A DNA stretch of 33,931 nt from Kiritimatiellia bacterium. Its GTDB lineage: Bacteria; Verrucomicrobiota; Kiritimatiellia; RFP12; UBA1067. The DNA lies in assembly GCA_017628165.1 (NCBI GenBank), contig JAGBZQ010000010.1, positions 1 to 33,931 of the forward strand, read 5' to 3'. Within the stretch, counting starts at the first letter, position 1. The number at the start of each line of letters is the position of its first letter. Both the position numbers and the translations under genes were made by a program. A model generated the notes under the pieces. That model was not told the origin of the DNA. It ran no database searches and saw nothing but the letters and a program-made list of their open reading frames with translations. Below are positions 1,529 to 27,708 of the stretch, piece by piece.

Positions 1529-3067
1529 TCAGCCGTTTTTGGCGTCGAACGCCAGAATGAACTCTGGATTCGACTGCGTCTTCTTGAGACTCGTAAGAAT
1601 GCTCTTCATCGAAGACTCCGCGCCTGCCGGGGCAAGAATCCTGCGAATCGCCCATGTCTTCTCAAGCTCCATGGGCGCAAGGAGAAGATCCTCCTTTCTG
1701 GTGCCGGACTTCTCGATGTCCATCGCAGGGAAAATGCGCTTGTCGGCCAGCGAGCGGTCAAGGACAATCTCCATATTGCCCGTGCCCTTGAACTCTTCAA
1801 AGATCACTTCGTCCATGCGCGAGCCTGTATCCACAAGGCCGGTGGCAATAATTGTAAGCGATCCGCCGCGCTCAATGTTGCGAGCCGCACCGAAGAAGCG
1901 CTTGGGCCTGTGGAGCGCAAGCGCGTCCACGCCGCCCGTCAAAATCTTGCCGGAATGCGGCTGAACGGTATTGTAGGCGCGCGCCATACGCGTAATGGAG
2001 TCGAGAAGGATGATGACGTCGCGGCCGTTCTCCACCTGACGTTTGGACATTTCAATCACCATTTCCGCCACGTTTACGTGATGCTGGGGCTCTTCGTCAA
2101 ACGTAGAGGAAAGAACCATCGCCTTTGTGTTGCGCTGCATATCCGTCACTTCCTCAGGGCGTTCATCAATGAGAAGAATAATGAGCATCGCATCTGGATG
2201 GTTGGCGGAAATGGCGTTGGCCATCTTCTGGAGCAGAACCGTCTTTCCGACGCGCGGCGGAGCGATAATGAGACCGCGCTGACCAAAACCGATCGGCGTG
2301 AAAAGATCAATAACGCGCGTAGAATACTCCGTGGGCGCGGTTTCGAGAATGATACGGCGCGTAGGGAACGTGGGAATCAAATTCTCAAAGTGAATTACGC
2401 GCGCCGCCACAGACGGCTCCTTGCCGTTCACCGTGTTCACATTGCCGAGGCAGAAAAAGCGGTCGCGGTCGCGCGGATCGCGGATGGGACCTTCGATAAT
2501 ATCGCCCGTTCTCAAAGCATGGCGGCGGATCTGCTGCTGTGTCACAAACACATCCTCGGGGCACGCGAGGAAGTTGTTCTTGGCCGAACGGAGGAAGCCG
2601 TGGCCTTCGCGGACGATTTCAAGACAACCGCTCGCAAGAACGGCGCCGCCCTTGGCAAGATAACTGCGTATGGCGGCAAAGATAAGCTCATGCTTTCTAT
2701 ATGTGCCAAGCTCCTCGGGATCCGCCCCCGGCATCATGGAATCGACGATCTGCTGCGCCGGCCAAATCTGAATATCAGAAAGGCGATACTCGGGCAGATC
2801 GCTGTTGCGGTTAGGATTGTTAGGCACCTCCTGATTCTGAGCGCGCTGCCCCTGCGGCAGCGGAGCGTTAAGGAGGGGATTTACAGATTCCGAACCGTTT
2901 GCACCCCTGATAGGGGAATTATTCACCTTCTCCCGGCGCTGATGCTGATGGGGCTTGTGGAACTGCTTCTTGGGATTCTGCTGCCCAGCAGAATTTGCCG
3001 CGGGTGCATTCTGAACAAGGCGCTGAGCCTTCTGCGGCTGCGCAAATACATCTAATTCGTCTGCCAT
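1529..3067 (-). CDS. rho: Transcription termination factor Rho, 512 aa, with a ~95-aa low-complexity N-terminal extension
   Basis: The ORF-track protein has the Rho RNA-binding core (GCLEIVREGHGFLRS, FVTQQQIRRHALRTGD). It has a Walker A motif (APPRVGKTVLLQ) and the C-terminal signature RIFPAMDIEKSGTRKEDLL. An AAAGAGG RBS lies about 6 nt upstream of the ATG at 3067. Confidence 0.97.
   Translation of the reverse strand: MADELDVFAQPQKAQRLVQNAPAANSAGQQNPKKQFHKPHQHQRREKVNNSPIRGANGSESVNPLLNAPLPQGQRAQNQEVPNNPNRNSDLPEYRLSDIQIWPAQQIVDSMMPGADPEELGTYRKHELIFAAIRSYLAKGGAVLASGCLEIVREGHGFLRSAKNNFLACPEDVFVTQQQIRRHALRTGDIIEGPIRDPRDRDRFFCLGNVNTVNGKEPSVAARVIHFENLIPTFPTRRIILETAPTEYSTRVIDLFTPIGFGQRGLIIAPPRVGKTVLLQKMANAISANHPDAMLIILLIDERPEEVTDMQRNTKAMVLSSTFDEEPQHHVNVAEMVIEMSKRQVENGRDVIILLDSITRMARAYNTVQPHSGKILTGGVDALALHRPKRFFGAARNIERGGSLTIIATGLVDTGSRMDEVIFEEFKGTGNMEIVLDRSLADKRIFPAMDIEKSGTRKEDLLLAPMELEKTWAIRRILAPAGAESSMKSILTSLKKTQSNPEFILAFDAKNG
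2798..3067 (-). other. N/Q/P-rich, probably disordered N-terminal extension of Rho (first ~90 codons)
   Basis: By my count, residues 1-90 contain 13 Q, 13 N and 10 P. The canonical Rho N-terminal helix bundle (LSDIQIW...RKHELIFAAIRSY) only starts at about residue 96. Confidence 0.7.
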
Positions 3068-3087: not shown

Positions 3088-3606
3088 TCAGGATCTTGAA
3101 GCGAGATATTGAACAAACTTGACGGCCTGAGCTTTCAAATTATCTTCAGTTGAATCGTTCAAGATCACATAATCGGATCTTCTGGCCTTCTCCTCAGCAT
3201 CCATCTGCGCTGCGAGACGGGCCAACGCCTCCTCATGGGTATAGCCGCGATTTGCGACCATTCGCTCAATTTGCTTTTCCCTTGAGGAGATAACGCACGC
3301 TATTATATCATAATCTTTCTCCCATTGCACCTCGAATAATAAAGGCACGACGGCAATTGTCGGGGAAGAGCCCCCGTCAATGGCTTCCATGAGAGCCTTA
3401 CGGACGATGGGATGAATGCGAGCTTCAAGCTTTTTGCGCTCTTCAGGATTGTTAAAGACAATCTTCCTGAGGCGCGCGCGCTCCTCCTCCGGAATCAGGG
3501 AATGAACGATATCATCGGCATCAATCGTTTTGACACCAAGCTCGTTCAAATAACGGCAAAGGAGGGATTTGCCAGAAGCAATCCCTCCCGTGAGACATAC
3601 TTTCAT
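3088..3606 (-). CDS. coaE: Dephospho-CoA kinase, short form (172 aa)
   Basis: The N-terminal P-loop is MKVCLTGGIASGKS, followed by IDADDIVH, then RKIVFNNPEERKKLEARIHPIVR and AVVPLLFE. All are typical CoaE motifs. The start lies 8 nt after the secretin stop. Confidence 0.9.
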   Translation of the reverse strand: MKVCLTGGIASGKSLLCRYLNELGVKTIDADDIVHSLIPEEERARLRKIVFNNPEERKKLEARIHPIVRKALMEAIDGGSSPTIAVVPLLFEVQWEKDYDIIACVISSREKQIERMVANRGYTHEEALARLAAQMDAEEKARRSDYVILNDSTEDNLKAQAVKFVQYLASRS

Positions 3607-3614
3607 GATGCCTT

Positions 3615-6600
3615 TTATTTCTGCTCGGGTGCTGCCAAAACAGCGCCGTCATTCTTGGATCCATCACCGCTCGTGGAAACCACAACCTCGCGGCCATGAG
3701 GATCCACAAGACGCGTGGTCACGAAGATGAGAAGATTGCGCTTCGAGGACCACTCGGAGTGGCTGCGGAAGAAGCGTCCGAGGAAGGGAATATCGCCCAG
3801 GAACGGAACCTTGTCATCCATGGCCTTGCGCTGCTCGGTAATGAGACCGCCCATCACAATCGTAGCGCCAGGATACACATCCACCTTTGATTCGATTGAG
3901 CGGACATGGAAGAACGGCTGCTCCATCGGGGCGTCATAGTACGTCATGTTCTCTGCACCACTTGAGGAGAGGCTGTCAAGCGCAGATGTGGCAGAATTGA
4001 CGGCCTTCTCGGCAAACGCCTGCTTTACGCCCTTTTCAAGCTCCGTTCCGATGGTGCCCAGAATTCCGGTAAGACCCTCAAAAATCCCGCCGATTCCCTC
4101 GAAGCTCTGAAGCGAGCTGTTGCCCGTGAAAGGAATGCGCATACCGTAGTTCTTCCACGTAGGCTCGTCAACCACCTGTGCGTTGATATCAAGGCTGATG
4201 AGGCTGGAGCTTCCCTCGTTCATCGTGGGCGTAACATCAAGGATCACGCCAACTTCACGCATATCGAACTCGCCAGGCTCAACGATTGCAAGAATGGCGC
4301 TCTGGGAATTGCCGCCGTAATTGCCGCCGCCGGAAGAGCTGCTGGACTGGAGCTGGACATCATAATCCTTAGGATACCTATACTCCGTGACCACCTTGAT
4401 TACCGCCTGCTCGTTGGCGCGGGCAAGAACCTTCGGTGCAGAGAGAAGATCCGTATCGCTACGCTGCGAGAGCATGTGAAGAATCATCGAGAGATCGGCA
4501 TTGCCGAGGAAGGCATTGACGCGCATGAACTGATCGTTCGTGGAATAGCCCTCGCCGGAAATATGGTTGCCAAGCGTGGAGAGGTAGCGGTTGTTCATGC
4601 CATAGCCGGACTTGCCGTCCATCGCATTGATTCCAAGGTTTCCACCTTTACCCCTGACCCATGAAGCACCTGAAGTAGGCTGCTTCACATTTGCACCTAC
4701 GGTAGAGGAAGGCCCGGTGACGCCTGGCTTAACGAACTGATCCGGCGGGTTGTTGATGCCTGAACTACCATCACTTTCCACCCCAGAAGAATTTACGGAA
4801 GCATCCCACACGCCACGATTGAGATTGAGCGCGCGACCAATGTGCTTCCCGAGATTAAGGGAGTAGTCGCTGTTTAAAATCCACTCAAAGCCGAGCGAAT
4901 TGAGATCGTCCTGGGAGACTTCCACGAAACGCGTTTCGATCTCAATGAGCGTGGTACTGGCGTTGATGTCGTTGAGCGCATTCTGGATAAGGGCGATATT
5001 CTCCTGTGTATTCTTGACGTAGAGTCTGCCGAGAGTCTTCACATAAGCGATAGACGATCCGTCCGGCCAATCAACATCCATAAAGGAGAAGAATGTCTTG
5101 AGGCTCATCTCCTTGGCCGCGCTCTCGGAGTCGCTGCTGCCAGCGGCGAATCCGCCGTTCTTATCGGTGAGCCCCTGAACTTCCTCGGAGGCCTGCTGCA
5201 CACGCTCCTCGAAATTCGGTAGTACGGGGAAGTCACGCGAAACCATCTCGTCTGCGGAATCACGCTTGTCCATGATCATAATCATGGGACCCTTGATGAC
5301 GTACTTGTAGTCCACCGCTTCGCAAACGAGCTTGAGAGCGTCGGCAAAAGAAATCTTGATGGCGGAAAGCATGGGGATCTCGGGCACGCCAGTATCCTTG
5401 GCGGCACCGGCATCCACGGAGTCGTCAGCGGCGAAGCCGCCGCCAGCATCATCAGCTGTTTCTGCGGCTGCGGCAGACTTGACGTAATTCACCTTGCGCG
5501 GCTTGACGAAGAAGTTAAATCCGCGCTCATCCTCCTGCTTCTGCTGATCGTCAAGATCCTTACTGGCCTGACGGAAGAATTCAATGGCGTCATTGAGCGT
5601 GGCCGGCGGCTTGAAGGAGATGGACTGAAGCTCCATCTTCTGCATACGCATGAGAATATCCTGCTCGATCGTATACTCCGAATCTCCGACGCTGGGCTTC
5701 TTCGTGGTCTCGCTCACGTTTTCAACGGAACGGGCGGTAAGCGCGTAAGTGGGCCTCCAAGCCTCGTCCACATCGGCAATCATACCCTCACGCGTAGCCT
5801 TGCGCTCCTGCTTAAGGATAACGGCGCGCTTCTCGTGGATTTTCTTGCGAAGACGGATAGCCTCCTGATTGTGCTTGTCAGACTGAAGAACGAGATCGCA
5901 CTCGGCAAGCGCGCGGTCGAGATCGCGAACCGCGAGGAAATGCTGCGAACGCTTAAGATGCTTGGCGATCTTGGCACGTTCGGACTTGTAATCTTCGTCG
6001 TTGCGACGATGTGAAATCTCACTGTAATCAGTCTTGTTTGCGTCAGGATCGCCCTCGGCTACCCATGCCTCATACTGACGGCGAGCCTTCGGATGGCGAC
6101 GCTCAATGGCCTTCTGCATAAGCTTAAGAGCCTTTTCGCGCCTACCCGTCTGATCCTCCTGAATGGCCGCGCGGTACAAACCTTCCGCCACTCCGTCATC
6201 ACACTTCTTGCGCAGATACGCAAGCTGAGGAGCGGAATTCAGCAACCCCATCGCCTGCACGTAATACCTGACGGCGGCCTCATAATCCTCAGCAAGCATG
6301 CACTTGTCCGCTTCTTCGATCGTGCGCTCGGCCTGAATCTTGAATGTCTTAAAACGGAGTTCCTGCGCCGTACGGAGCTGAGCCATAAGCTTACGCTCCT
6401 CAGCCGAGAGATTTGACACCTCTTCTTTTGCGGCAAGCGCTTTCTCCGGCGCCGTACCACCTGCTGCAGGCTCTGCCTTTTCTTCCGTTGGAGAGTCAGA
6501 GGAAAGCTCATTGAGAAGATCAACTACCTCCTCGGCAAGATTATCCTCCTTAACCGGCTCTGCGGGAGCTTCCTTTACGGGCTCGGCATCAGCCTCTTTA

Positions 6601-6938
6601 ACCGGCTCCGCGGGTGCTTCCACAGGCACAACCTCCGCTTCCTTTACAGGCTCGGCGGGAGCTTCCTTTACGGGCTCGGCATCAGCCTCCTTAACCGGCT
6701 CCGCAGGAACATCCTCAGGCTCAGGCTCAGAGACCTTCTCCTCCTTCGCAGGAACCAGAGGAGCCGCCGCAGCCGGTTTTTCCGGCTCCGCAACCTTCTC
6801 CTCCTTGACAGGAGTCTTTTCCTCAAGCCCTTCTAAAAGAGCTTCGAGGTCATCCTGCGCAACGGCATTATAACCAGCCACAACGGCTACAGCCGCTGCG
6901 CCTATGGCAAAAAAGTTCCTTAAGGTCGTCATATTCAA
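3615..6938 (-). CDS. Large type II/IV-family outer-membrane secretin (PilQ/GspD-like, 1107 aa) with a signal peptide, an acidic AEPVKE repeat linker and a TPR-like helical region
   Basis: The signal peptide is FFAIGAAAVAVVAGYNAVAQD. The secretin core starts at LIEIETRFVEVSQDDLNSLGFEW. The canonical C-terminal motifs are DLLSAPKVLARANEQAVIKV and VPFLGDIPFLGRFFRSHSEWSSKRNLLIFVTTRLV. The track start is a TTG at 6938, 7 nt after AAGGAG; an ATG at 6932 is an alternative. Confidence 0.88.
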   Translation of the reverse strand: MNMTTLRNFFAIGAAAVAVVAGYNAVAQDDLEALLEGLEEKTPVKEEKVAEPEKPAAAAPLVPAKEEKVSEPEPEDVPAEPVKEADAEPVKEAPAEPVKEAEVVPVEAPAEPVKEADAEPVKEAPAEPVKEDNLAEEVVDLLNELSSDSPTEEKAEPAAGGTAPEKALAAKEEVSNLSAEERKLMAQLRTAQELRFKTFKIQAERTIEEADKCMLAEDYEAAVRYYVQAMGLLNSAPQLAYLRKKCDDGVAEGLYRAAIQEDQTGRREKALKLMQKAIERRHPKARRQYEAWVAEGDPDANKTDYSEISHRRNDEDYKSERAKIAKHLKRSQHFLAVRDLDRALAECDLVLQSDKHNQEAIRLRKKIHEKRAVILKQERKATREGMIADVDEAWRPTYALTARSVENVSETTKKPSVGDSEYTIEQDILMRMQKMELQSISFKPPATLNDAIEFFRQASKDLDDQQKQEDERGFNFFVKPRKVNYVKSAAAAETADDAGGGFAADDSVDAGAAKDTGVPEIPMLSAIKISFADALKLVCEAVDYKYVIKGPMIMIMDKRDSADEMVSRDFPVLPNFEERVQQASEEVQGLTDKNGGFAAGSSDSESAAKEMSLKTFFSFMDVDWPDGSSIAYVKTLGRLYVKNTQENIALIQNALNDINASTTLIEIETRFVEVSQDDLNSLGFEWILNSDYSLNLGKHIGRALNLNRGVWDASVNSSGVESDGSSGINNPPDQFVKPGVTGPSSTVGANVKQPTSGASWVRGKGGNLGINAMDGKSGYGMNNRYLSTLGNHISGEGYSTNDQFMRVNAFLGNADLSMILHMLSQRSDTDLLSAPKVLARANEQAVIKVVTEYRYPKDYDVQLQSSSSSGGGNYGGNSQSAILAIVEPGEFDMREVGVILDVTPTMNEGSSSLISLDINAQVVDEPTWKNYGMRIPFTGNSSLQSFEGIGGIFEGLTGILGTIGTELEKGVKQAFAEKAVNSATSALDSLSSSGAENMTYYDAPMEQPFFHVRSIESKVDVYPGATIVMGGLITEQRKAMDDKVPFLGDIPFLGRFFRSHSEWSSKRNLLIFVTTRLVDPHGREVVVSTSGDGSKNDGAVLAAPEQK
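6534..6821 (-). repeat. In-frame acidic P/E/K/A-rich repeat region inside the secretin gene, including a near-identical 93-nt-period duplication
   Basis: The protein reads PAEPVKEADAEPVKEAPAEPVKE ... PAEPVKEADAEPVKEAPAEPVKE. At the DNA level, the 48-nt core gggagcttcctttacgggctcggcatcagcctcYttaaccggctccgc occurs at 6564-6611 and at 6657-6704 with one mismatch. Confidence 0.9.
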
Positions 6939-6945
6939 AACAATT

Positions 6946-6996
6946 CTCCTTGGATATTATCAAATATATTATACCTTATTTCCGATTACGGTTCAA
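6946..6996 (-). promoter_or_regulatory. Putative sigma70-type promoter plus RBS for the secretin gene
   Basis: On the minus strand, TTGAAC (6996-6991) is followed by a 17-nt spacer and then TATAAT (6973-6968). AAGGAG (6951-6946) follows. The -35 element overlaps the last codons of the upstream gene. This is motif matching only. Confidence 0.4.
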
Positions 6997-8068
6997 GTAC
7001 GTCTATAACACGCTCGCGAAGGGTTCTGAGATTCTTAACCTTCACAACACCCCGCTTGCCGTCTTTTTTAACCTCCAGCGTCTTAAATTCCGTATCGAGA
7101 ACTTTAAACGTTTCGCCTTCAGCCACCTTGAATTCAAGCGTCTTGCCGCGATTGAACACCACCTTTGCGCGGACATCGGTGGGGGTCGGGGATTTATCGA
7201 TTACAAGTGCAATGCGCTTGCCGTCTCGTGCGCGCTCCACAATGACCTCGTCGAGCGTGACCGTAATCGCCATTTCCATGCCAGGCCTGACGACCTTCTT
7301 GGATTTCGCCACGAACGATCTCACCACAAAGCCCGTATCGCCGATCTGCTCACCCTCGAACGCGCGATAATTGCCATGCCCCAACTCGGCCTCCTTGCCG
7401 GGCATCTTGAATTGGAAGCGAAGCTTCCCGTTGATCTTCTCCTTCTTGATGAACTTAAGGAGCGTATACTCCTGCTCAAAGGGCGCCTCAAGAGAAAGGA
7501 AGTCTATGTAATCAGGATGCGAAGAAGAATCGGAAGGTGAAGTCTTGGCCGTAAACTCCTCCGTGTTGGTAAAGCCGTCGCCGTCCTTGTCGGCATCTGC
7601 ATCCGCCACTAAAGGATCAAGCCCATGCTGCTTCTCGTAGTCGTCAAGAAGCCCGTCCCCGTCAGTATCGAGAACCACCTTGATTTCCTTCTCCTGCATT
7701 TCGCCGCAGAAACGGCACTTCTTGTCCGTAAACGGAATCGGCTTCCCGCATCCGGGCTTGTCGGAGCCTTCGGGGGTAGAGCAGGAAACGCGCATTTCGG
7801 ATGCGAGGAAACTCTTGGCGTCTGCCGGCACCTCGGCGAGAGCGGCACTCTCGACGGCACGCCCGAAAATCTCCTTGGCGGGAGCCAGATCAAATTCCTC
7901 CCCGGCAGTTTTTACAGCTCCGGAATATCCGCCGAAAAATTCATCCTCTTCCCCGGAGACAAGCACGAACTTCACGACTACGACAGCCGCCACGGCCGCG
8001 AATCCCGCAAAAGCCACGAGCTTATGCCACTGCTCCTTCAGAAAATCACCATCACCGCGCGCGCTCAT
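6986..8068 (-). CDS. Membrane-anchored protein (360 aa) with a Cys cluster, two bacterial TSP3-type Ca-binding repeats and a beta-rich C-terminal domain. It occupies the PilP position of the cluster.
   Basis: It has an N-terminal TM helix (LVAFAGFAAVAAVVVVKFVLV) and a C-x10-C-x10-C-x2-C cluster (SCSTPEGSDKPGCGKPIPFTDKKCRFCG). The TSP3 repeats are DTDGDGLLDDYEKQHGLDP and DKDGDGFTNTEEFTAKTSP. An ATGA start/stop overlap with the upstream gene lies at 8065-8068. The function is assigned by position only. Confidence 0.75.
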   Translation of the reverse strand: MSARGDGDFLKEQWHKLVAFAGFAAVAAVVVVKFVLVSGEEDEFFGGYSGAVKTAGEEFDLAPAKEIFGRAVESAALAEVPADAKSFLASEMRVSCSTPEGSDKPGCGKPIPFTDKKCRFCGEMQEKEIKVVLDTDGDGLLDDYEKQHGLDPLVADADADKDGDGFTNTEEFTAKTSPSDSSSHPDYIDFLSLEAPFEQEYTLLKFIKKEKINGKLRFQFKMPGKEAELGHGNYRAFEGEQIGDTGFVVRSFVAKSKKVVRPGMEMAITVTLDEVIVERARDGKRIALVIDKSPTPTDVRAKVVFNRGKTLEFKVAEGETFKVLDTEFKTLEVKKDGKRGVVKVKNLRTLRERVIDVLEP

Positions 8069-9015
8069 TTAGATTCCTCCTTCGCAGCAAAAACAATTGT
8101 GGAAACATTCAAAACCACTCTGAACGGCTCAACCGAAGAAGGGTCTGTAAGACACATTTTGTTGCGGCCGATCTCGGCCTCTTTCTCTTCGGCCGCTTTC
8201 TTATTTCTGCCGCCCTTGGCTCTGCCCTTTTTATCCTTTTCGCCATCTCCACCGATCGCCTGCAGAAGAGAATCGCGCGGCTGGTCAAAGGACATGGCGT
8301 CTACGGCGTAAAATCTTGTCTTGTCTGCGGCAAGCGCATTCAATACCTTTACGAGCGCGGCGGGCTTTGCAAGAAACTCGATTTCGTAAAGTTCTTCGCT
8401 GCACGGATATTTCTCACTCCCCGTCTTCTGGGAGGTCTGCCTTCTTCCGCGATGATTCCTTGTGATTGCTTCCGTTTCGGCGCTCTCATCCTTTGTAAGC
8501 ACCTTGACGGCAAGAAGCTCGGTAGCGCCCGAATCAAGAAGGATTTCCGTCATGGCCGAAACGTCGCCCCGGCGGCGGAAAAGCTTGGGCACATCCCGCT
8601 TAGCCGGAACCTTGCCGTTGATGTATTCGGCAAAAACTCCAAAGCCGAAATCCTCGGCTATGATTTTCTTCGCCGAATTCCGCGGAAGCGCCCTGAACTT
8701 GACGGCATCGGCGTACATCGTTTTCTGCAACGCATCCTTATCGGGCGTTTCCGCCAAGACGCCCCTGTTGGTCAAGGAAGCGTACGCGGCGATAGCCACA
8801 TCGGCAAGCGCCTTCATGTTGGCGCGCGCCTCGTTGCCGCTCTTGCGAGTGATCCCGCGCTTGCTCTCGCACACGGAGCGGCTGCCCGCCACATCATCGC
8901 GCGTTTCGGAGACATTCTCTGCTCCCACGTAAACCATTGCCAGAAGCGCAAGCGTGATCACGCCTGCAACGCCTCCGGCCACAGCCATCGTCAATTGATT
9001 TCTGTTCATTTCCAT
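8065..9015 (-). CDS. Amuc_1100-family pili-associated membrane protein (316 aa), in the PilO position
   Basis: It has one N-terminal TM helix (MAVAGGVAGVITLALLAMVYV). Its length and block order match my recollection of Akkermansia Amuc_1100 (317 aa). The matching blocks are FGFGVFAEY vs WLGFQVYS, EELYEIEFLAKPAALVKVLNAL vs PMPLEIAFQGDRESVLKAMNAI, a charged low-complexity segment, and then FRVVLNVSTIVF vs VFVQVSLNLVHF. It overlaps both neighbouring genes. Confidence 0.65.
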   Translation of the reverse strand: MEMNRNQLTMAVAGGVAGVITLALLAMVYVGAENVSETRDDVAGSRSVCESKRGITRKSGNEARANMKALADVAIAAYASLTNRGVLAETPDKDALQKTMYADAVKFRALPRNSAKKIIAEDFGFGVFAEYINGKVPAKRDVPKLFRRRGDVSAMTEILLDSGATELLAVKVLTKDESAETEAITRNHRGRRQTSQKTGSEKYPCSEELYEIEFLAKPAALVKVLNALAADKTRFYAVDAMSFDQPRDSLLQAIGGDGEKDKKGRAKGGRNKKAAEEKEAEIGRNKMCLTDPSSVEPFRVVLNVSTIVFAAKEESK

Positions 9016-10715
9016 TCCGACTCCTTGAACTGCAATTTCAACACAACCTCCTGAAGAGAGCCGCCCCTGCCTCTCGTGGGCGCTTCAGGCGTCTCTATCC
9101 CATCCTCGGTAAACGCAAGCGTCTTTTTCAGACGATCGCGGATAATCTTCTGGATCGTATCGCCGTTATTCTCCTTTGAGAGAGCCTCCGTGCGGTCCTT
9201 CCAACCGCGCACAACCACCTCGGTGAGCGTGATTTTCTTCTTCTCCTCTTCACCGCTCCTGTTGCGGCGGTGGCGGGTGGAATTCTGCGGCTGAGGAACA
9301 GCCACCTCTACGGTCTTTTCCTCCCACTTGGATATCCACATGTCAGGCTCTATGGCCTTGCGGACCGCGTCAAGGCGCATCAAGCACTTATCGCGCCGTT
9401 CAATGCGCTTGGCGAATTTTCCTGCCGCTTCCTTCTCCGCATTGAAAAGCTGAACCGACTCTGTATTGAATCGTTCATTGCCCGTAAGCATATCCGCTTC
9501 TTGAGAAAGACGCTCGCTCTCTTCGGTAAGCGCAGCCAATTCCGCCCGCTGGGCCACGAACCACGCCGCGCTCGCCACCACAAAGGCAACTGCGCCGGCG
9601 AGAACAAAAGGAATCCGTGCGGCCTCCTTCTTCGCCTCCACGATTGAAGGCGGAATCAGGTTCACCGAAATGTCCGCACTGCCTGAAGCCTGCAGAGCAA
9701 GGCCGGCGGTAGCTCCAAGAAGAACAACATCGGATCCGACAGACTCCGGGTCGGCCGACGATATCACATCAAGAGGATTCAAGAACTCGACTTCCACTCC
9801 AAGCGCATCCTGGAAGAACTCCCCGATCTGCGGCAAAAGCGCGGTTCCTCCGGTAAGGTAGAACTTCACCGGAGTTCCGCCGCCCTGCTGGCTGCGATAG
9901 AAATTGATGGACCTGTTAATCTCCGTCTGAAGCCGTGTCATCACGGAGCGGCAGACCTTGGAGATGCGATCGAGGGTTTCGTCCTCGTCCTCCGTTACGC
10001 CGCCCATGGAGACGTATGCGCTTGTAAGCTTGTAACTCTCGGCCTCCTCAAAAGTGCATCCGAGATTTTGCGCGATCTCCTTGGTGATTGTCCTGCCTGC
10101 CACAGGAATCGCGCGGTTGTAAAGCTTTTCGCCTTCAATTATGGAAAGTGAGGTGGTCTTGGATCCGATATCGACAATAACGGAACATTCTCCGGAATAT
10201 GCGGGATTCGCCTTTACAAGGTTCACCAGCGAAACGGGAGCAACGCTGATGATCTCGGGCTCGAGACCAGCCATCTTAACGGCCGCGGCGATGCTCTCCA
10301 CCTGCTCCACCTTGGTGGCCATGATCAGAACAGATTTATCGCCGTTTTCAGTGTCGCCAAGAACCTGATGGCCGCAGACCATGTCATCTATCGGGAAAGG
10401 AATGTTCTGCTCGATATCGCCGCGGACGAGCGAAGCGAACTTCTCGCTGTCGCCAACCATAGGAATAGCCACGGTGCGCAGAAACGCCATCTGCCCGGAA
10501 ACGGACACCGCCACTTTGCCCGGCTTCATGCCCTTCTCGCGCATAATGCCCTGAATGGCCGGCACGAGAATCATATCGGCGTTGCCTGCGTCTATATCGG
10601 CTGGAAGAGCTGCGCTTCCGTATTTGAGCAGCGCCGGAGTCTTCGCTCCTATATCATATTCTGCAAGGACTATTCCTGCAGCTCCGATATTGAGTGTTAA
10701 AATTTTCTTTCCCAT
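9006..10715 (-). CDS. pilM: Type IV pilus assembly protein PilM (actin-like ATPase fold) fused to a PilN-like TM and coiled-coil module (569 aa)
   Basis: The N-terminal ~345 aa are PilM/FtsA-like (ILTLNIGAAGIVLAEY, VIVDIGSKTTSLSII, FYLTGGTALLPQIGEFF). They are followed by the PilN hallmark VNLIPPSIVEAKKEAARIPFVLAGAVAFVVASAAWFV, then a coiled coil and a charged tail. Confidence 0.85.
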   Translation of the reverse strand: MGKKILTLNIGAAGIVLAEYDIGAKTPALLKYGSAALPADIDAGNADMILVPAIQGIMREKGMKPGKVAVSVSGQMAFLRTVAIPMVGDSEKFASLVRGDIEQNIPFPIDDMVCGHQVLGDTENGDKSVLIMATKVEQVESIAAAVKMAGLEPEIISVAPVSLVNLVKANPAYSGECSVIVDIGSKTTSLSIIEGEKLYNRAIPVAGRTITKEIAQNLGCTFEEAESYKLTSAYVSMGGVTEDEDETLDRISKVCRSVMTRLQTEINRSINFYRSQQGGGTPVKFYLTGGTALLPQIGEFFQDALGVEVEFLNPLDVISSADPESVGSDVVLLGATAGLALQASGSADISVNLIPPSIVEAKKEAARIPFVLAGAVAFVVASAAWFVAQRAELAALTEESERLSQEADMLTGNERFNTESVQLFNAEKEAAGKFAKRIERRDKCLMRLDAVRKAIEPDMWISKWEEKTVEVAVPQPQNSTRHRRNRSGEEEKKKITLTEVVVRGWKDRTEALSKENNGDTIQKIIRDRLKKTLAFTEDGIETPEAPTRGRGGSLQEVVLKLQFKESEWK

Positions 10716-10742
10716 ATTTTCGACCTGTCGGTTAATAGCTGC

Positions 10743-11489
10743 TTACTGGGCAACAACTTCGTAATCATTGGGGTTGACGAGCGCCCAAATCGTCTTGGAG
10801 CGATCCACGAGACCCTGACGGCGCTCGATCAAAGGATCGCCGGCGGCGTTTCTGGCATCCATAATCTTGGCGTCCTCCCACCACTTGGTGTGCGACGGAA
10901 GATTTCTGATTTCGCTTGCGCTGTCGCCTGCAAGAATCTCTCCCTCGGGATTCGTGATAACGACACCGACCGCCATAGGCGCGCCGTACCTTTCGTAATA
11001 CGAAGGAGGCAGGCAGACAGATGTGGCATGCGAACCTTTGGGGATGTTCATGTAAGTGACGGTGGTGGAGAAATAAGAATACTGCGCCATCTTGACGAGA
11101 TTGCCGGCGGCATCCTTTTCCTTCTCCTTCATCGTGGAGGTGTCAAGAAGGACATGCCATGTCACGGTGAGACGATCGAACCACTGGACGTTGGTTTCGA
11201 ACTTGCTCTCAAGAACAATCCACTTGCGATCCCTGGTGTTGCAGCGTCCGATTGCGCTTGCGCCTGGCACCGCAGGTGCGGAAAGAAGAGAGGCGGCATT
11301 CCTGCCGATCGTTTTGCGCAGCTCGTTACCGTCAAGGAACACCTTGGCACGCGAGGCCTGAGCAGCCTGAGCGGACACCTTAGTGGAAACACCGGCGCCA
11401 GAAGCTCTGCGGCGCGTCTGCGCATCAGCACTGCCGGCAACCATAACCCCTGCAAGAGCTGCTGTAATCAAAACAAGACTTTTGTTCAT
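10743..11489 (-). CDS. Secreted hypothetical protein (248 aa), first gene of the pilus-like cluster and the positional equivalent of Amuc_1102
   Basis: It has a Sec signal peptide (MNKSLVLITAALAGVMVAGSADA|Q) and a strong AAGGAGG RBS about 7 nt upstream. There is no prepilin G|F motif. I recognise no other motif. Confidence 0.7.
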   Translation of the reverse strand: MNKSLVLITAALAGVMVAGSADAQTRRRASGAGVSTKVSAQAAQASRAKVFLDGNELRKTIGRNAASLLSAPAVPGASAIGRCNTRDRKWIVLESKFETNVQWFDRLTVTWHVLLDTSTMKEKEKDAAGNLVKMAQYSYFSTTVTYMNIPKGSHATSVCLPPSYYERYGAPMAVGVVITNPEGEILAGDSASEIRNLPSHTKWWEDAKIMDARNAAGDPLIERRQGLVDRSKTIWALVNPNDYEVVAQ

Positions 11490-11516: not shown

Positions 11517-12509
11517 TTACAGCACCTTCATCTTTGGAAGGTCCTGGATATCAATAAGTCCAACCACGTGCCCGGCGTCATCGCACACCGGAAGATCGTC
11601 AATGCGCATTTTCTCGAAAACCTTGAGAAGCTCGGACGCATAAACGCTTTGCCTGACGAACATGGGCGAAGGCGTCATTACGGAAGAGACTTCAGCCTCG
11701 AGAAGCGAAGCCGCCTTCTCCGAGCCGTCGCTCACCAGACGGCGGAAATCCCCATCCGTGAAGATGCCCGCAAGAACACCATCTTCGCCGGCTATCACGG
11801 CAGATCCGGACTTCGCGCGCGTCATCGCCATAAGCGCGTCCATTACCTTTGCCCCGGGGCTTACCAAAGCAAGGCGGTCGCCCTTGCGCATGATATCCGC
11901 GGCCTTCATAACGAGAGCCCTTCCGATTGCTCCGGCGGGATGATTCATCGCATAATCCTCGATAGGAAATTTCTGCGCGTCGATAAGCACCATCGCAAGA
12001 GCGTCGCCCATAGCCATCGTGGCCGTGGTGGAGTTGGTGGGCGCCATCCCGAACGGACACGCCTCGCGTCCGCAGGGAATTTCAAGGTGGACGTCAGACA
12101 TCTCCGCGAGAGACGACGCCGGATTGCCCGTCATGGAAACAATCTTGAGCCCATGGCGGCGGATGGCCGGAACAAGCTTCAAAACCTCATCGCTCTCGCC
12201 GCTGAACGAAAGCGCCACAAGGATATCCTTAGCGGAAACCATCCCGAGATCGCCATGCATGGCCTGCACGGGATTAAGAACGATGGACCTTACGCCTGTA
12301 GACGCAAAAATGGCGCTCATCTTCTCGGCGATGTGAAGATTCTTCCCGACGCCCGAGACGACAACAATGCCGCCAGCGCGCGAACAGTCAAGAATCATCT
12401 TCACGGCATCCGTGAAGGCGCCGCCTATTGAATCGCGCGTACGCTTAAGCCCTTCGATCTCGACATCGAAGACCTCGTGCGCGCGGGATATCATTTCCGT
12501 TTCAGTCAT
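11517..12509 (-). CDS. kdsD: Arabinose-5-phosphate isomerase (KdsD/KpsF family, SIS domain plus two CBS domains)
   Basis: VVVSGVGKNLHIAEKMSAIFASTG, HGDLGMVSAKDILVALSFSGESDE, CPFGMAPTNSTTATMAMGDALA and NHPAGAIGR align closely with E. coli KdsD/GutQ. GIFTDGDFRR is followed by the CBS tail. Confidence 0.93.
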   Translation of the reverse strand: MTETEMISRAHEVFDVEIEGLKRTRDSIGGAFTDAVKMILDCSRAGGIVVVSGVGKNLHIAEKMSAIFASTGVRSIVLNPVQAMHGDLGMVSAKDILVALSFSGESDEVLKLVPAIRRHGLKIVSMTGNPASSLAEMSDVHLEIPCGREACPFGMAPTNSTTATMAMGDALAMVLIDAQKFPIEDYAMNHPAGAIGRALVMKAADIMRKGDRLALVSPGAKVMDALMAMTRAKSGSAVIAGEDGVLAGIFTDGDFRRLVSDGSEKAASLLEAEVSSVMTPSPMFVRQSVYASELLKVFEKMRIDDLPVCDDAGHVVGLIDIQDLPKMKVL

Positions 12510-14777: not shown

Positions 14778-17700
14778 TTATTCGGTAATTTTGACTTTGA
14801 AGAATCCGCTCGAAGCGCGCTTGAGATCCTCAATAATCTTGAGCGTGACCTCCTGCGGCTTATCCCCTACCGTGATCTGGACAGGGAAGGAAACCTCATC
14901 CCATTCGGACTTATCAAGCGTCTCTTTGTACAGAACCTGGCATTCGACAGTCTTCTCGCTATCGCCGGAAAGCGGAATGAATCCAAGGCCGTTAGCATTG
15001 CCTTCGGCGGTGTTGAGTTTACCTTCGATGGTGAGCTTTACGTTGCCATCAGCATCGAAACCTACGCCCGTAATCTCAATCTCCTCAACCTCGCTCTCGA
15101 CAGAGATGGAGCCGTCGGGACGGATTGTGATCGAATCGGGATCGAAACCGAGAGCAAGCGCGGTCATAGCGGGCGAAGAGAACGCCGTCATGATATAGTT
15201 GTTGTAGGCGTCCGTCCGGACAGATCCGACAACCTTGTCCTGAATGTTGGCGGTCAGGAGCTTGTTGATGGCGTAAGCGTTTGCCAAAGACGCATCAAGG
15301 CTGCTCGCCCCGTTATCGAGCTTGCCGCCATTCTTGACGAGCTCCCATGCGTCGGGCAGACAGCTGCCGTTCGTGTCGACATCCTCGATATAGATGTCAA
15401 TCGGAGCTGCAAAGCCATTAGCGTCGGTGACGACAAAGCCAAGAGGCGTATAGATGTCAGAGACCTTTTCGCCGCGCTTGCAAGCGTAGCCCCAGGACTC
15501 GGTGAGATCACGGACGCGCTTTGCCGTACCGGGGATATCCTTCATATCCGCGTAAGCCCTGAGGTAATACTTGCCGACGGGCACGCCGTACAAGAAGGCG
15601 TTCGTCTGATGTGTGACGCCCGCTGCAATGACGCTCTCAAGGTTATCCACCACAGCGCGCGCTGCGGGGATGCCGGTAAAGTCGGGCGTGGAGAACGCTT
15701 CCACCACAAACTCGGCCTTCTGGGCCACGCTGGCAGGCCCGAAGTATTTCACCGAGACGGGAATGTTCGCGTATCCGGCACCGATGGTGGGCGCGTTCAT
15801 GCGGAAGACGTAATTCTCCGTGGACCAAGCGTCCGTCTTGAACTTGGCGTTGTACATCGAGACCCTCCAAGTGTAGTTCTTGTTGTTCTCAAGCTCGTCG
15901 CCGATATACGCATCGGCTTCGAATGTATGGACGCCGTCAAGATCCTGCGCGGGAGCGCGGCGGAAGCCGGAATCCCAAACCACCTTCGTGCCGTCGAGAA
16001 TCTGCACCTTGAATGCCGTATATGTATGCGAACGCTTCGGCATTCTCCACTTAAACGTCGGATGAGTTCCGAAAACAACGGAATTTGCGGATCCGGGAGA
16101 GATGGCCTCAGCAACGGCCCGGCCGTTTTCAGGGTCGAAATAGCGGCGGACACCTACGGATGAACAAGGTGCAGTCTCCAGGTTTTCATCGCTTCCGAAA
16201 TAGATCAGATATCCGACCCATTCAACGTCATCACCCTTGTTAAAGCCGTTGATGATTTCATCGTAAAGACTATCCCAATCAAGATCCAACGCGCAATACT
16301 CGAGAATGTCCGCTTCTGTCAAGCACGCGTTCTGATCAAAATTAACAATCTTGTCAACGACTACGCGCAGAGGAGTGAAGGCCGGCTGCTTTCCATAACA
16401 GGAGGAATACGCGCGCACGACACGAATGCGCTCGGAACGCCCGCCGGAAACCGAGCCTCCATCGATTATGGACATATCGCTGCCGGCCTCTCCGAATATG
16501 ACCTTCCGGTCTGTTGTTTCCGTCGTAAGATTAATACGCGCAAAAACAGGATTCGTATCGGTAAGTTCAATCTCTGTCTTGGCCTGATGCCAGCCCACAT
16601 CAACACCAACGGCGGTGCCGAAAGGTTCGCCCGGCGTATAGTCGCCGCTGCCGTCAAGATCGTAGAACGCCACGATGGTGTTCTTTCCTTCCTTGACAAA
16701 GCCGTTTTCCGCCTCGCCAAGGAAGAGATCAAGCTTGTTGGACTGCATTCCGGGAACAACAGAATTGTACTTCAAGCGAAGCACCATCTGCGCCATGCTG
16801 ATTACAGCGGTGGAATTCGTCATCTCAACCCCGTGACGTGCGAGCGGAGTAAGGTCAAACGAATAGTCACCCGTCTTAAGATTGATCGTTCCCGTACGCT
16901 CTCCGCCGATGCAGATATAACCATTCTCGCCGGGGGTGTTGGTATCCTGGGTGACGGTAATAGCGCTGGCCTCTTCAAACTCGCCCCACTCGAACTCCGC
17001 AGACTGAAGCTGAATCAGATTCGGCCCGAACCTGTTGTAAAGGCTCATATACGCCTCATAGGAATCGGCGTAATATCCAGACGGCATCTGGGCGGCAAGG
17101 GCGGCGTCCACCCCGCTCAAATCGCCCACAAAGAACGTGTAGATGTCGTTGCGGTCGATCTCGGCAAATTCAAGCGTGAAGGATCCCGCGTTGATGTAGC
17201 CGGGGGTAAGAGTGCCGGAAACGGTCTTCTCGTCCCAAGGTCCGATGTACGCGATGTTCTCCCGCTCCTCTCCGGGCTGAATCGTAAATGTCGCATCCGC
17301 CACGGAAGAGCCGTCGCCCTTGCGCGTATAAGTCTTGACCACTATCGGAGCAAGAGTAGCCCTCTCTTCCTCGTTTCCGCCGCCACCTTCGTCGGAAGTG
17401 CCCGTCAAAGGCTGCAATCCGTTATAGCGGAGCGTGAGCTTCAAAGTCGGAATCGGCATATCCTTGATCTCGGAGTCTCCGACGACATGAGAAGCATAGG
17501 GTGCCACGATCGACTTCGTGAAGTTATGGAAACGCGCCTCGGCGTAGTTGCTCCAGCCGTCCTCGTCAGCATCGGAGAAAGCATCCCACTTGTAGCGGCT
17601 TGCAAACGCGGCGCCCCAGGAATCCTCGAGCTGATCCTCGATGAAGTCATGGTCGCTGAAGAGTTCGCCGGCGTAGAGCTCGCCTACCTTGATGAAGTAA

Positions 17701-20700
17701 TCAAGATCATAGCCATTGACACTCTTCGCATCAATCGGACTAAACTTGAGGCGATTGCCTGCGGAGTCCTTAACTTCAAAGACTTCGCTCAAGAGATACT
17801 CCGCCCAGTTAGAGAGACCATCACTATCATTATCGTCAACATCGCTCGAAGCGAAGATGTCGTACTTCTTCTCCCACCAATCAGGAATGTTATCGCCATC
17901 GGTATCGACAGTCGCCTTGTATGCCTCGTCAATGGTGCCATTAGGCTGCATACCGTTGATGAGATCAAACTTGTAGAGCTCGCCTGCGGTAGCCGGGAAC
18001 ATATCCTTGTGGAGGTCCTTGTATGCGGCAGGAACATCATTCTCGCCAATCATCATATCCCAGGCGATGTCAGTGCCGCCGGAGACAAGATTCTCCCACC
18101 AATCGGGAAGGCCGTCCGCATCATCGTCAGATCCGGTAAGATCCCATGCATCGGCAACGGCGCGGTCCCACATCTTCGGGCAAGTCTTCGCATAAGCATT
18201 GCCGAGCGGAATGAGATCCGTAGTGGCGGAGAAGCTCGAGCGCATCGCAAACTCTGCCATACGCTTATATGTCGCGAACGCTTCGCCATACTGCTCGGCA
18301 ACACGCGTAGCGGCAAAGACCTTCATATAACGATCAAGGTTATAGACCACGCTAGAGTAAGGCACGGCAGAGTTCGGGAATTCGAAGACCGCAAGCTCGT
18401 GCATCGCCGCAGGCGTGTAGAGGGCACCGAACTGCTTGGCGTAGATGGAGGTGTCCACCACATTTCCGTCAGCAAGCGGCAAGTGCCCCACTGTGTTCTG
18501 AATCCACGGCACTACATGATAATCAGAGTAAACGGTATTCTTGAGAAGGCTCTCGTTCCACCAGCCTACATTGAGATCGTCAGCCGATCCCTTAAGCGCG
18601 GCAACATCATAAAGACCGGCAGCATCGATCTCCGGATTGGCGGCGTAGCTGCCAACCGCAGCATCAAGAACCTTGGCGGCGAAACCGGCAGGCGTCTTAA
18701 GAACGTCTCCAGCGTTGACTGCGCCAGGAAGCGTCATGAAGTTATAGTGGAAAACAAGCTCGGCCGGGAGCATTTCCTCGCTGTCGTTATTATTGCGAGT
18801 AGCATCCTCAAGCCACGCATACGCCACTTCGCTACGGTTCTCAAGAGCATCCTCGAACGTATAGCGCTTGCGGAAATCGGCCTTGATTTCGGCAGCGGTG
18901 CGCGCGCCGTCCCAAACACGAACTTCGTCGATCCAGCCACCGAAGAACTCGCGCATGTTGGCAAAGGTTTCCAGATGATCGCCCGTGGTCTCGTCAATCC
19001 AGTATGGGGCGAGCGCAGCCTGAGGATCGCCAGAATTCTGCACCACCACCGAAGCCTTCTCGGGGCGAGCACCAATAATAAGCGAAGCCGGGAGCGAGGA
19101 GTAGCCGGTAGTGGGGATGCCACCTTCCGCACCAGGATTCTGCTGGAGCATCGTCACGCCGTTGGCAGGAATGAGTGTTGTCGCGGCGCTATTGACAGCG
19201 TCACCGTTCACATAAAGAGTGAGCGTAGAGCCGTCGAACGTAAGCGCCACGTGCGCCCATTCGCCCACAGTGAGGCTCGTACCGTCAACACGCTGGCAGC
19301 TGATCGGATGATTGAGACCAGACTCCATGGCATCGTTGTTGTCGAACATACCGTAGACGCGTCCGTCGCTATAAAGACCGATGCGGAAGTTCGCGCGAAT
19401 CGCGGCGGCGTCGCCCGTAATGCGGCTTCCATCGTAAACGATAGCACGCTCGATAATCGTCTGCTCGGCGCCCGTCTTCTCGGGCCTTACCCAGCACTCC
19501 ACCGTGAACTGCTTGAGGAGGTCGGACGACTGGATGGGACGCTCCTGAAGCTCTCTTGAAAGGGCATAGGACTGCACACCATCAAGATAGAGCGCCTGGC
19601 GGCGGTCAGGGTCCTCAAACTTGAGAGGATCGGTGGCAGGGGTGAAGCCAGTCACCACTTCCGCACCGTCAAAGACGAAGTCGCCGTCCGTATCGTAGCC
19701 TTCACCCTCTTCAAAGCCGTACATATACTCGAAGTCCATACCGCCGGCCACGGCTGCAATCTCGAACTCGGAGGACGGTGGCGGCATCCAGGGTTGCGCT
19801 ATGAGGCGCTGCGAAGTCACGTAATACTGCGCCACGTAGCTCACAGGAGTTGAGCGCTCGGTGAACCAAAGCGGAGTGGGGTCGGTATGGCGCGGCATCG
19901 GATCTGCCGCATTGGCCACGATGCGCTCGTCGTCATTGCGCATTCCGTCGCCGTCGGCATCTGCGAGAGCCGTACCCATGATCCACGGATAGAGAACTGC
20001 ATCAAACGCCTGAGGAGCCGCAATCGGAGTGGCAGCCACTGTGGGCGGCTCACCACTCACGCGGCCATCGAGGCTCACGTAATCGGGGAAAATCCACTCG
20101 TTATAGTAGGCGTTAAATGAGCCAAGGCAAGAGTCGCCATTGCGCTCGGCGTTGACAGCAGAGATGATATCGCCGCGCTTACCGCCAGTCCATACGGATG
20201 CGTCAGGCGAATCAACATTCGTTCCAAGAATCGGATTGAGACCGTGGAACATTTCATAGTAATCGTCCATGCCGTCGCCATCGGTGTCGGCCATGCGCGG
20301 ATCGGTGGTGACATATCCGGCCACGCTGCCTGAAGTAATCATAGAGGGCTCTTCGCCTTCTTCTGTCATAACGCTTACAGGCCACATATAAATCGGGTCT
20401 GCCAAAACAACGCTCGTGATGGCGCGATCCCACTCCTGAACGGGAGCGGCAAAGTAGCCGAGCATACGCCAACCTTCCTCCGTCCAAGGCTTCATGAGAT
20501 CATATACATCTGCACGAGCCTCCACATCCTGCGGAACCTCTCCCCATGCCTCTGTGACATTACCCTGGAATGTACCAACATCTGCCATATCGAAAGGCAC
20601 ATAGCCATAGAACGCCTGCTGGAAAGCGCCCTGATCACCAGAAAGGAGGCGTCCCATGAGCGGAGTGGAAACGTCGTCGTAGCGGAAGTGACGAACGGAC

Positions 20701-27351: not shown

Positions 27352-27708
27352 TTACCTGCTCTGGGTGGCTCTCATCTGATTGGCCACCGTCTCGCGCGCC
27401 TTGATCGTATGCTGCTTCATCAGCTCGGCGTATTTATCCACTTCCGCCTGAAGCTTCGCAAGGACCTCGGCGGACTGATTAGCCGCCTTTGCTTCCTCGA
27501 GAGCTTTGACCGCTATGGAAGCGGCTTTCATAATCTCCCTGCGCGCCGAATTCAGTTCATTGAGTTTCTCAAGATAAACAGGATCGTTCATGCGTCTTTT
27601 AACCGGATCTTTCTCGACTGACGCGGCATCTGCATCAGACGACTTCGAGCATCCGGCAAGGATACTCGCGCCGATCATAAGCGCTATAACGGAAGTTTTA
27701 ATTGCCAT
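27352..27708 (-). CDS. Small coiled-coil lipoprotein (118 aa) between the two giant genes
   Basis: It has a textbook lipobox (MAIKTSVIALMIGASILAG|CSKS). The rest is helical and charged (LEKLNELNSARREIMKAASIAVKALEEAKAANQSAEVLAKLQAEVDKYAELMKQH). Its start overlaps the upstream gene's stop by 11 nt. Confidence 0.8.
   Translation of the reverse strand: MAIKTSVIALMIGASILAGCSKSSDADAASVEKDPVKRRMNDPVYLEKLNELNSARREIMKAASIAVKALEEAKAANQSAEVLAKLQAEVDKYAELMKQHTIKARETVANQMRATQSR

Follow-up and report, generated by a model that had tools for sequence, protein, structure and literature searches.

The Kiritimatiellia counterpart of the Akkermansia MUL2 locus: a divergent pilMNOPQ-like cluster that probably encodes the scaffold and secretin of a type IV filament machine

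In type IVa pili (T4aP), the PilM, PilN, PilO and PilP proteins form an inner-membrane alignment complex that joins the PilB/PilC motor to the PilQ secretin, and the classic pilMNOPQ operons, e.g. in Pseudomonas, are separate from the pilin and ATPase genes. The corresponding parts of the type II secretion system (T2SS) are GspL (equivalent to a fused PilM and PilN), GspM (PilO) and GspC (PilP). The closest described relative of the locus reported here is Amuc_1098-1102 of Akkermansia muciniphila, for which the excerpts of the literature available to us use the term type IV pili cluster and, more recently, the name MUL2. According to these excerpts, MUL2 is important for mucin acquisition in A. 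muciniphila, and mucin products build up in internal compartments of Akkermansia in a MUL-dependent manner. Here we describe five genes at positions 3615-11489 of contig JAGBZQ010000010.1 (GCA_017628165.1), a stretch of 33,931 nucleotides (nt) from a Kiritimatiellia bacterium, below called the window. The locus is the Kiritimatiellia orthologue of MUL2, i.e. a divergent example of a described locus type and no new class of system. In our reading it is probably the envelope scaffold and outer-membrane secretin of a type IV filament machine (T4aP/T2SS class) whose motor and pilins are encoded elsewhere, with glycan capture or uptake as the probable function.

The five open reading frames (ORFs) lie head to tail on the minus strand, tightly packed and co-directional exactly as laid out in a preliminary description that had been made from the bare sequence. 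From 5' to 3', the ORF scan gives an Amuc_1102-like gene (248 amino acids, aa; 10743-11489), a PilM-PilN fusion gene (569 aa; 9006-10715), an Amuc_1100-like gene (316 aa; 8065-9015), an Amuc_1099-like gene (360 aa; 6986-8068) and a secretin gene (1107 aa; 3615-6938), with 27 nt between the first two genes, overlaps of 10 and 4 nt at the next two junctions and 47 nt before the secretin gene. All features described below are on the same strand. Each of the five proteins has only one hydrophobic segment in a hydropathy scan. Their best NCBIfam matches are the Amuc_1102, 1101, 1100, 1099 and 1098 models, in that very order, and the curated cut-off is passed by one of the five (Amuc_1099_fam).

The same series is found on an Akkermansia contig obtained in a metagenome scan with the Amuc_1100 sequence (L109), where Amuc_1102, 1101, 1100, 1099 and 1098 are followed by coaE and rho. 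In the window, Pfam searches likewise place coaE (3088-3606) 8 nt 3' of the secretin gene, and rho (1529-3067) 20 nt beyond coaE. The secretin-coaE-rho order is also drawn for Verrucomicrobiota MUL2 loci in the available portion of a published survey (PMC13174399), a portion that is limited to Akkermansiaceae and further Verrucomicrobiota, without mention of Kiritimatiellota. The synteny with Amuc_1098-1102 that had been proposed earlier was thereby borne out, and extends into coaE and rho. Besides gene types, order, orientation and the coaE-rho flank, the two loci have in common the PilM-PilN fusion, the PilO-like fold of Amuc_1100 and the Ig-like fold of Amuc_1102. They differ in phylum, the window locus being from Kiritimatiellota and not Verrucomicrobiota, and protein identities between them are 0-31%. 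The Akkermansia fusion has the sequence NIDLEP where Kiritimatiellia have the canonical INLLPP, the Amuc_1099-like protein of Kiritimatiellia has an additional four-cysteine motif and a second TSP3 repeat, and the Kiritimatiellia secretin exceeds that of Akkermansia by 200 aa and has repeats in its N-terminal region. Upstream, kdsD adjoins the cluster in Kiritimatiellia, whereas a peptidase gene takes this place in Akkermansia.

Relatives of the 248-aa protein were found in 117 species-representative genomes, and the 80 loci that were retrieved are the basis of the Kiritimatiellia counts given here. These loci come from gut or rumen metagenome-assembled genomes (MAGs) of Kiritimatiellia, at no more than 62% identity. 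As far as the contigs reach, the order of a giant protein gene, ackA, pta, kdsD, the five cluster genes, coaE and rho is invariant in all 80 of them. A chance arrangement of ORFs was consequently rejected, since the five genes recur in the same order in every retrieved locus. The median identity across the 80 species is highest for the 248-aa protein (52.6%), followed by the secretin (51.5%), the PilM-PilN fusion (45.9%), the Amuc_1099-like protein (37.3%) and the 316-aa protein (29.3%), the fastest-evolving component; the corresponding values for ackA, pta, kdsD and rho are 72-82%. Judged by an order that is invariant in 80 out of 80 genomes at 29-53% median identity, the locus is under purifying selection. 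By the same identities the Amuc_1102-like protein, and not the well-known Amuc_1100, is the most constrained part of the cluster. The conserved block from the giant protein gene to rho (1529-27326 in the window) measures approximately 20 kb across the 80 species-level genomes.

The cytoplasmic, actin-like PilM domain of the 569-aa protein (aa 9-342; 9690-10691) is matched by Pfam PilM_2 (E 3e-31) and FtsA (E 5e-16), and the protein scores 156.8 bits on TIGR01175 (pilM), over the cut-off of 133. The best PDB sequence matches of this domain are PilM of Myxococcus xanthus (3jc8_M, E 4e-33) and of Thermus thermophilus (2YCH, E 1e-26). Directly after the PilM domain, the translation has NLIPP (aa 352-356; 9648-9662), which corresponds to the N-terminal INLLP motif of PilN. 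Across 36 orthologues (consensus INLLPPS), the N, L and P of this motif show almost no variation, and the canonical motif is retained in the Kiritimatiellia fusion. It is followed by a single transmembrane (TM) helix, seen in the hydropathy scan and translation (aa 368-389; 9549-9614), and by a periplasmic part in which a coiled coil precedes a small alpha/beta domain (aa 390-569; 9009-9548). A profile of the 36 orthologous C-terminal parts matches M. xanthus PilN (3jc8_N) with an E-value of 9e-7, in an alignment that runs from the motif through TM helix and coiled coil into the first part of the core. The profile also aligns the INLLP motif with the PilN residues both of M. xanthus PilN and of an engineered Pseudomonas aeruginosa PilM-PilN chimera (5EOU). 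Pfam gave no PilN match for the isolated C-terminal part. Because the PilM match is combined with the INLLP motif, the TM helix, the coiled coil and the profile matches to PilN and 5EOU, the protein is, on sequence grounds, a natural PilM-PilN fusion, as had been noticed earlier. It belongs to the Amuc_1101 family, with 345 bits (E 7.5e-103) on Amuc_1101_fam, whose cut-off is 650, and 31% identity to Amuc_1101 over 378 aa in pairwise BLAST (E 1.5e-54). When the profile of the PilN part was compared to that of the Amuc_1100 family by hhalign, only the TM region aligned, and a paralogy of PilN and PilO is therefore not supported by sequence.

The 316-aa protein consists of an N-terminal TM anchor, long helices, a ferredoxin-like core and a disordered insert rich in K, R and E (aa ~250-290). 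In searches of the PDB, its relation to Amuc_1100 was recovered only by a 43-sequence profile and by fold search. The protein itself reaches 19 bits on Amuc_1100_fam (E 7.7e-4, cut-off 180). Pairwise BLAST gave no match to Akkermansia Amuc_1100, a direct PDB sequence search gave nothing, and a nine-sequence profile also missed Amuc_1100. An exhaustive search collected a family of 513 clusters at E <= 0.001, and 39 out of 43 sampled members match the Amuc_1100 model NF038287 (best E 4e-26). Four of the 43 match GspM of the T2SS, which the window protein itself does not. The 43-sequence profile aligns with the sequence of the Amuc_1100 crystal structure (6KNY) over positions 30-247 (E 4.8e-12), and hhalign of the family against Akkermansia Amuc_1100 gives a probability of 97.2% (E 3e-11). 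An AlphaFold2 (AF2) model of the protein (pLDDT 79) has Amuc_1100 chains at all of Foldseek ranks 1-10 in the PDB (E 3e-8, TM-score 0.7-0.78), followed by PilO of P. aeruginosa (2RJZ; E 1.3e-3, probability 1.00), 3JC8_O of M. xanthus and 5UVR. The PilO sequence models of Pfam and NCBIfam do not match the protein. The similarity to Amuc_1100 on which the preliminary description depended is hence present in profile as well as fold comparisons, and the 316-aa protein is an Amuc_1100 homologue with a predicted PilO fold. A likeness of Amuc_1100 to PilO and PilN has been remarked upon in literature that we have seen in excerpt. In the model, a PilO fold follows an N-terminal anchor, which agrees poorly with the labelling of Amuc_1100 as an outer-membrane protein, and this combination prompts a re-examination of the location of Amuc_1100-type proteins.

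The most conserved component, the 248-aa protein, starts with a cleavable-looking Sec signal peptide (aa 1-23, ending ..SADA|Q) in the hydropathy scan and translation, so its earlier designation as Sec-secreted stands. The signal is followed by a disordered, R-rich linker, an Ig-like beta-sandwich and an invariant C-terminal block, ERRQGLxDRSKTIWALVNPNDYE. Sequence comparisons with Amuc_1102 range from 20 bits on Amuc_1102_rel (E 4e-4, cut-off 55) and a pairwise BLAST E-value of 0.016 to an hhalign score of 89.6% (E 1.9e-6) for the family profile, and PF28178 is found in relatives of the protein. A direct PDB sequence search gave nothing. The best PDB fold match of the AF2 model (pLDDT 74) is Amuc_1102 itself (7DSZ, Foldseek E 8e-7), and all other fold matches are generic Ig-like sandwiches. 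The fold searches suggested along with the preliminary description accordingly lead from the 316-aa model to Amuc_1100 and from the 248-aa model to Amuc_1102.

The fourth protein, of 360 aa, is the one that passes its NCBIfam cut-off (Amuc_1099_fam, E 5.8e-19, 68.8 bits, cut-off 50). As had been described, it is a TM-anchored TSP3 protein: after the N-terminal anchor come a four-cysteine motif, two TSP3 calcium-binding repeats (Pfam TSP3_bac, E 1.5e-8), an SHPDY motif and a C-terminal beta-rich domain. Pairwise BLAST to Akkermansia Amuc_1099 (E 6.7e-7) is confined to the TSP3 region. The zinc-ribbon-like motif C-x10-C-x10-C-x2-C (C96, C107, C118 and C121; 7706-7783) is apparent in the translation. 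When 34 orthologues were aligned with Amuc_1099, the four cysteines were nearly invariant in Kiritimatiellia, and the whole segment was absent from the Akkermansia protein. This motif falls in the predicted periplasmic part of the protein. In the order of the operon, the gene takes the PilP/GspC position.

The 1107-aa protein is a secretin, in agreement with its first identification (Pfam Secretin, E 8.6e-31). A signal peptide (..AVA|Q) precedes about 180 aa of repeats rich in P, E, A and K, then a helical region that resembles TPRs and, at the C-terminus, the secretin domain, which is split by insertions. It has 395 bits on Amuc_1098_fam (E 5e-118, cut-off 750) and aligns with Amuc_1098 over 892 aa at 24.6% identity in pairwise BLAST (E 1.4e-63). 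The models of other systems do not place it: GspD (120 bits, cut-off 351) and PilQ (TIGR02515; 106 bits, cut-off 284) are both under cut-off and, together with MshL, score alike, PDB matches to GspD and PilQ are also alike, and HofQ models give weak matches far under their cut-offs. No AMIN domain was detected in the protein. An imperfect tandem repeat of 24/48/93 nt at 6545-6720 encodes the PAEPVKEA-type repeats near the N-terminus and lies outside the Amuc_1098 family model. Of the Pfam models that had been proposed as a check on the cluster, Secretin and PilM_2 were thus matched, and PilN, PilO and PilP were not.

Set beside the T4aP PilMNOPQ proteins of M. xanthus (3JC8), P. aeruginosa and T. 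thermophilus, the cluster has the same order M-N-O-(P)-Q, the PilM domain, the motif, TM helix and coiled coil of PilN, the PilO fold and the C-terminal secretin domain, and it shares with the Pseudomonas operon the lack of pilins and ATPases. Unlike in these systems, a single chain holds both PilM and PilN, the fourth protein has a TM anchor, TSP3 repeats and no detectable PilP similarity, the secretin has no detected AMIN domains, and an additional first gene encodes a Sec-secreted, Ig-like protein. We propose that PilMN and the PilO-like protein would form an inner-membrane ring, which the Amuc_1099-like protein would bridge to the secretin. The PilM face would dock an ATPase of the PilB/GspE type and a PilC/GspF platform, both from genes outside the cluster, and the retention of a full-length PilM domain argues for such a cytoplasmic partner. 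Prepilin-type subunits, likewise from other loci, would then be assembled into a pilus or pseudopilus passing through the secretin.

Physiologically, the machine may capture large glycans of host or dietary origin and/or take them up into the periplasm. By analogy with Akkermansia this is probably its role, which we favor at clearly lower confidence than the structural assignment. The preliminary description had called the machine essentially uncharacterised, a statement outdated by the naming of MUL2 and its reported requirement for mucin acquisition in the excerpts cited above. Kiritimatiella glycovorans, the first isolate of Kiritimatiellota, has a T2SS and exports many glycoside hydrolases and sulfatases, and TonB-dependent polysaccharide uptake genes were not found in it.

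Several observations weigh against the scaffold reading and its proposed role. In motif scans, pilin, PilB/T, PilC and PilD genes were absent within 10 kb on either side of the cluster in 167 loci, and the existence of partner pilin and motor genes elsewhere in the genome is an assumption. Four of the five proteins are under the curated equivalog cut-offs of NCBIfam, and for this reason they are to be seen as divergent homologues, not equivalogs. The signal of the 248-aa protein is of the Sec type and not the prepilin type, and beyond 7DSZ there is no pilin among the 50 best fold matches of its model. The 360-aa protein has a TM anchor and no lipobox, Pfam found nothing, including PilP, in its isolated C-terminal part, and a PDB profile search with its family returned calcium-binding repeats only, without PilP; its equivalence to PilP/GspC is therefore positional only. 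The glycan-uptake role, finally, is extrapolated across phyla from Akkermansia, where it goes back to Davey 2023 as related in excerpts of citing papers.

A more far-reaching version of the scaffold reading can be offered tentatively, and we regard it as doubtful. The MUL2-type module might be an ancient machine shared by Kiritimatiellota and Verrucomicrobiota, in which large glycans or glycoproteins enter through the secretin, in effect a reverse type II system and a functional substitute for TonB/SusCD. The Amuc_1102-like protein would then be a substrate-handling or fibre subunit, and Amuc_1100-type proteins would be the inner-membrane PilO and not an outer-membrane pilus protein.

That the cluster is instead the core of an outward T2SS, in which PilMN, the Amuc_1100-like protein, the Amuc_1099-like protein and the secretin would act as GspL, GspM, GspC and GspD, respectively, appears unlikely. 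Such a core would export carbohydrate-active enzymes (CAZymes), sulfatases or giant adhesins, and would make neither a surface pilus nor a route for glycan import. One chain with an actin-like domain, a TM helix and a periplasmic domain is indeed the architecture of GspL, a partner with the GspM/PilO fold and a TM-anchored, GspC-like component are present next to a secretin, and the GspM matches within the 316-aa family (four out of 43) as well as the slight lead of GspD over PilQ on the secretin (120 vs 106 bits) point the same way. The T2SS and the many secreted glycoside hydrolases and sulfatases of K. glycovorans, and the conserved giant surface-type protein of 4182 aa nearby, would also agree with it. 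However, the N-terminal domain of the fusion matches PilM and not GspL, the gene order is M-N-O-P-Q, and the GspD and PilQ scores are both far under their cut-offs. There is no GspL or GspC match, neither Pfam nor the PDB profile search detected a PDZ or HR domain in the fourth protein, and the cluster does not lie within a gspC-M operon with gspE/F/G. The Akkermansia orthologue is, in the excerpts available, linked to mucin uptake and pili, not to secretion. The likeness of the window cluster to a T2SS is one of architecture only.

A second alternative is that the five genes make up an autonomous PVC-type (Planctomycetes-Verrucomicrobia-Chlamydiae) envelope apparatus working without pilins, assembly ATPase or platform. 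It could, e.g., be a channel that is passive or gated by PilM, and the Amuc_1102-like protein would belong to it as a component at the surface or in the periplasm. We consider this improbable. The absence that the preliminary description had reported was confirmed, as no prepilin-type N-terminal motif was found in a six-frame scan of the window and no T2SSE/T2SSF-type genes were seen among the domains of its large ORFs. In none of 80 Kiritimatiellia and 80 Akkermansia loci was the cluster accompanied by a pilin or ATPase gene. An extra secreted subunit of its own, which is the most conserved part, and a PilM-PilN fusion that makes the module more self-contained would suit an autonomous machine too. 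The conclusion drawn earlier, that this is not a conventional pilus, was nevertheless not supported. Classic T4aP systems as a rule keep pilMNOPQ apart from the pilin and motor genes, and because ordinary pilMNOPQ operons lack such neighbors too, their absence here is no argument for it. A full-length PilM over its curated cut-off is also hard to explain without a cytoplasmic partner. Akkermansia, moreover, is reported to carry pilus proteins outside MUL2 (Amuc_1523-24, _1583, _0394 and _0745), to need pilus genes elsewhere in its genome for colonisation, and to have an A24A prepilin peptidase family that is conserved in the genus. Prepilin-type genes abound in PVC genomes: a search seeded with a generic PVC pseudopilin N-terminus, i.e. 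an approximate query, retrieved more than 7800 prepilin-type proteins, among them matches in Lentisphaerae and Victivallales and none labelled Kiritimatiellia.

The scaffold of a DNA-uptake (competence) pilus, comparable to Thermus PilMNOWQ or to HofQ-type secretins, was considered and rejected as very improbable, since the Thermus 'competence protein PilM', which ranks second among the PDB matches of the PilM domain, and the weak HofQ matches of the secretin, themselves far under cut-offs, are set against the absence of com genes nearby, the tie of the orthologous Akkermansia locus to mucin use in the excerpts available, and lineage-specific Amuc_1102- and Amuc_1099-type parts that have no competence counterpart.

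As the Kiritimatiellia orthologue of MUL2, the cluster demonstrates that Verrucomicrobiota are not alone in having a locus type from which, in Akkermansia, the TLR2-active Amuc_1100 derives and on which mucin foraging depends. It is found at the same rho-proximal position in apparently every retrieved gut or rumen species of Kiritimatiellia, abundant and uncultured glycan degraders, and this position is conserved across two phyla. NCBIfam and Pfam models (PF28028, PF28178) already cover the Amuc_1098-1102-type families, and some Kiritimatiellia relatives already carry the name 'Amuc_1100 family pilus-like protein'. As a very divergent second set of sequences, the Kiritimatiellia loci help to find the essential features, such as the PilM-PilN fusion with INLLP, the PilO fold and the C-terminal block of the Amuc_1102-like protein.

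The flanks of the cluster are housekeeping genes, as first reported. Directly upstream, after a 27-nt gap, Pfam identifies a kdsD-like gene (SIS and CBS domains; 11517-12509), preceded on the same strand by pta and ackA. GC content across the region is flat (0.52-0.58), and with these flanks a mobile element or island was rejected. An Rfam scan of the window gave no matches, and promoter and terminator scans of it were uninformative. A sigma-70-like site (TTGAAC-17-TATAAT, 10 out of 12 positions; 6968-6996) is situated in the 47-nt gap 5' of the secretin gene and may, as a consensus match only, be an internal promoter.

Further upstream, the giant 4182-aa ORF (14778-27326) has Laminin_G_3, TSP3, PKD and Ig-like matches, and in 67 of the 80 Kiritimatiellia loci a homologue occupies the same place, upstream of ackA-pta-kdsD and of the five genes. 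The TSP3 repeat type is common to this protein and the Amuc_1099-like protein. Directly upstream of the giant gene, a 2074-aa ORF (27698-33922), for which Pfam and NCBIfam gave zero matches, almost reaches the end of the window.

Among the additional loci obtained in the prepilin search (L168-L172), prepilin-type genes with N_methyl and SBP_bac_10/DUF1559 domains adjoin very large CAZyme-like genes (CBM9, PcRGLX, GH42) and GntR/LacI-type regulator genes, which hints that pseudopilins are tied to glycan use in those bacteria. In L168, a 676-aa PilM-type gene, only distantly related to the window locus, is found 6 kb from a pseudopilin.

Six records with a fully syntenic Kiritimatiellia-type locus have titles of other taxa, namely Lachnospira hominis, Barnesiella intestinihominis, Gemmiger sp., Azospirillum sp., Faecalibacterium sp. 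and a Methanomethylophilaceae archaeon (L019, L021, L022, L023, L029 and L072), and these bins look mislabelled or contaminated. At the left end of the window, positions 1-1486 are where the start of a uvrA gene running off the end is expected. Contig JAZOWU010000062.1 (GCA_045659385.1), which encodes identical rho and 248-aa proteins and has the same gene series as the window, continues after rho with a 912-aa UvrA gene, ABC-F, a U32 peptidase, luxS and ribosomal protein genes.

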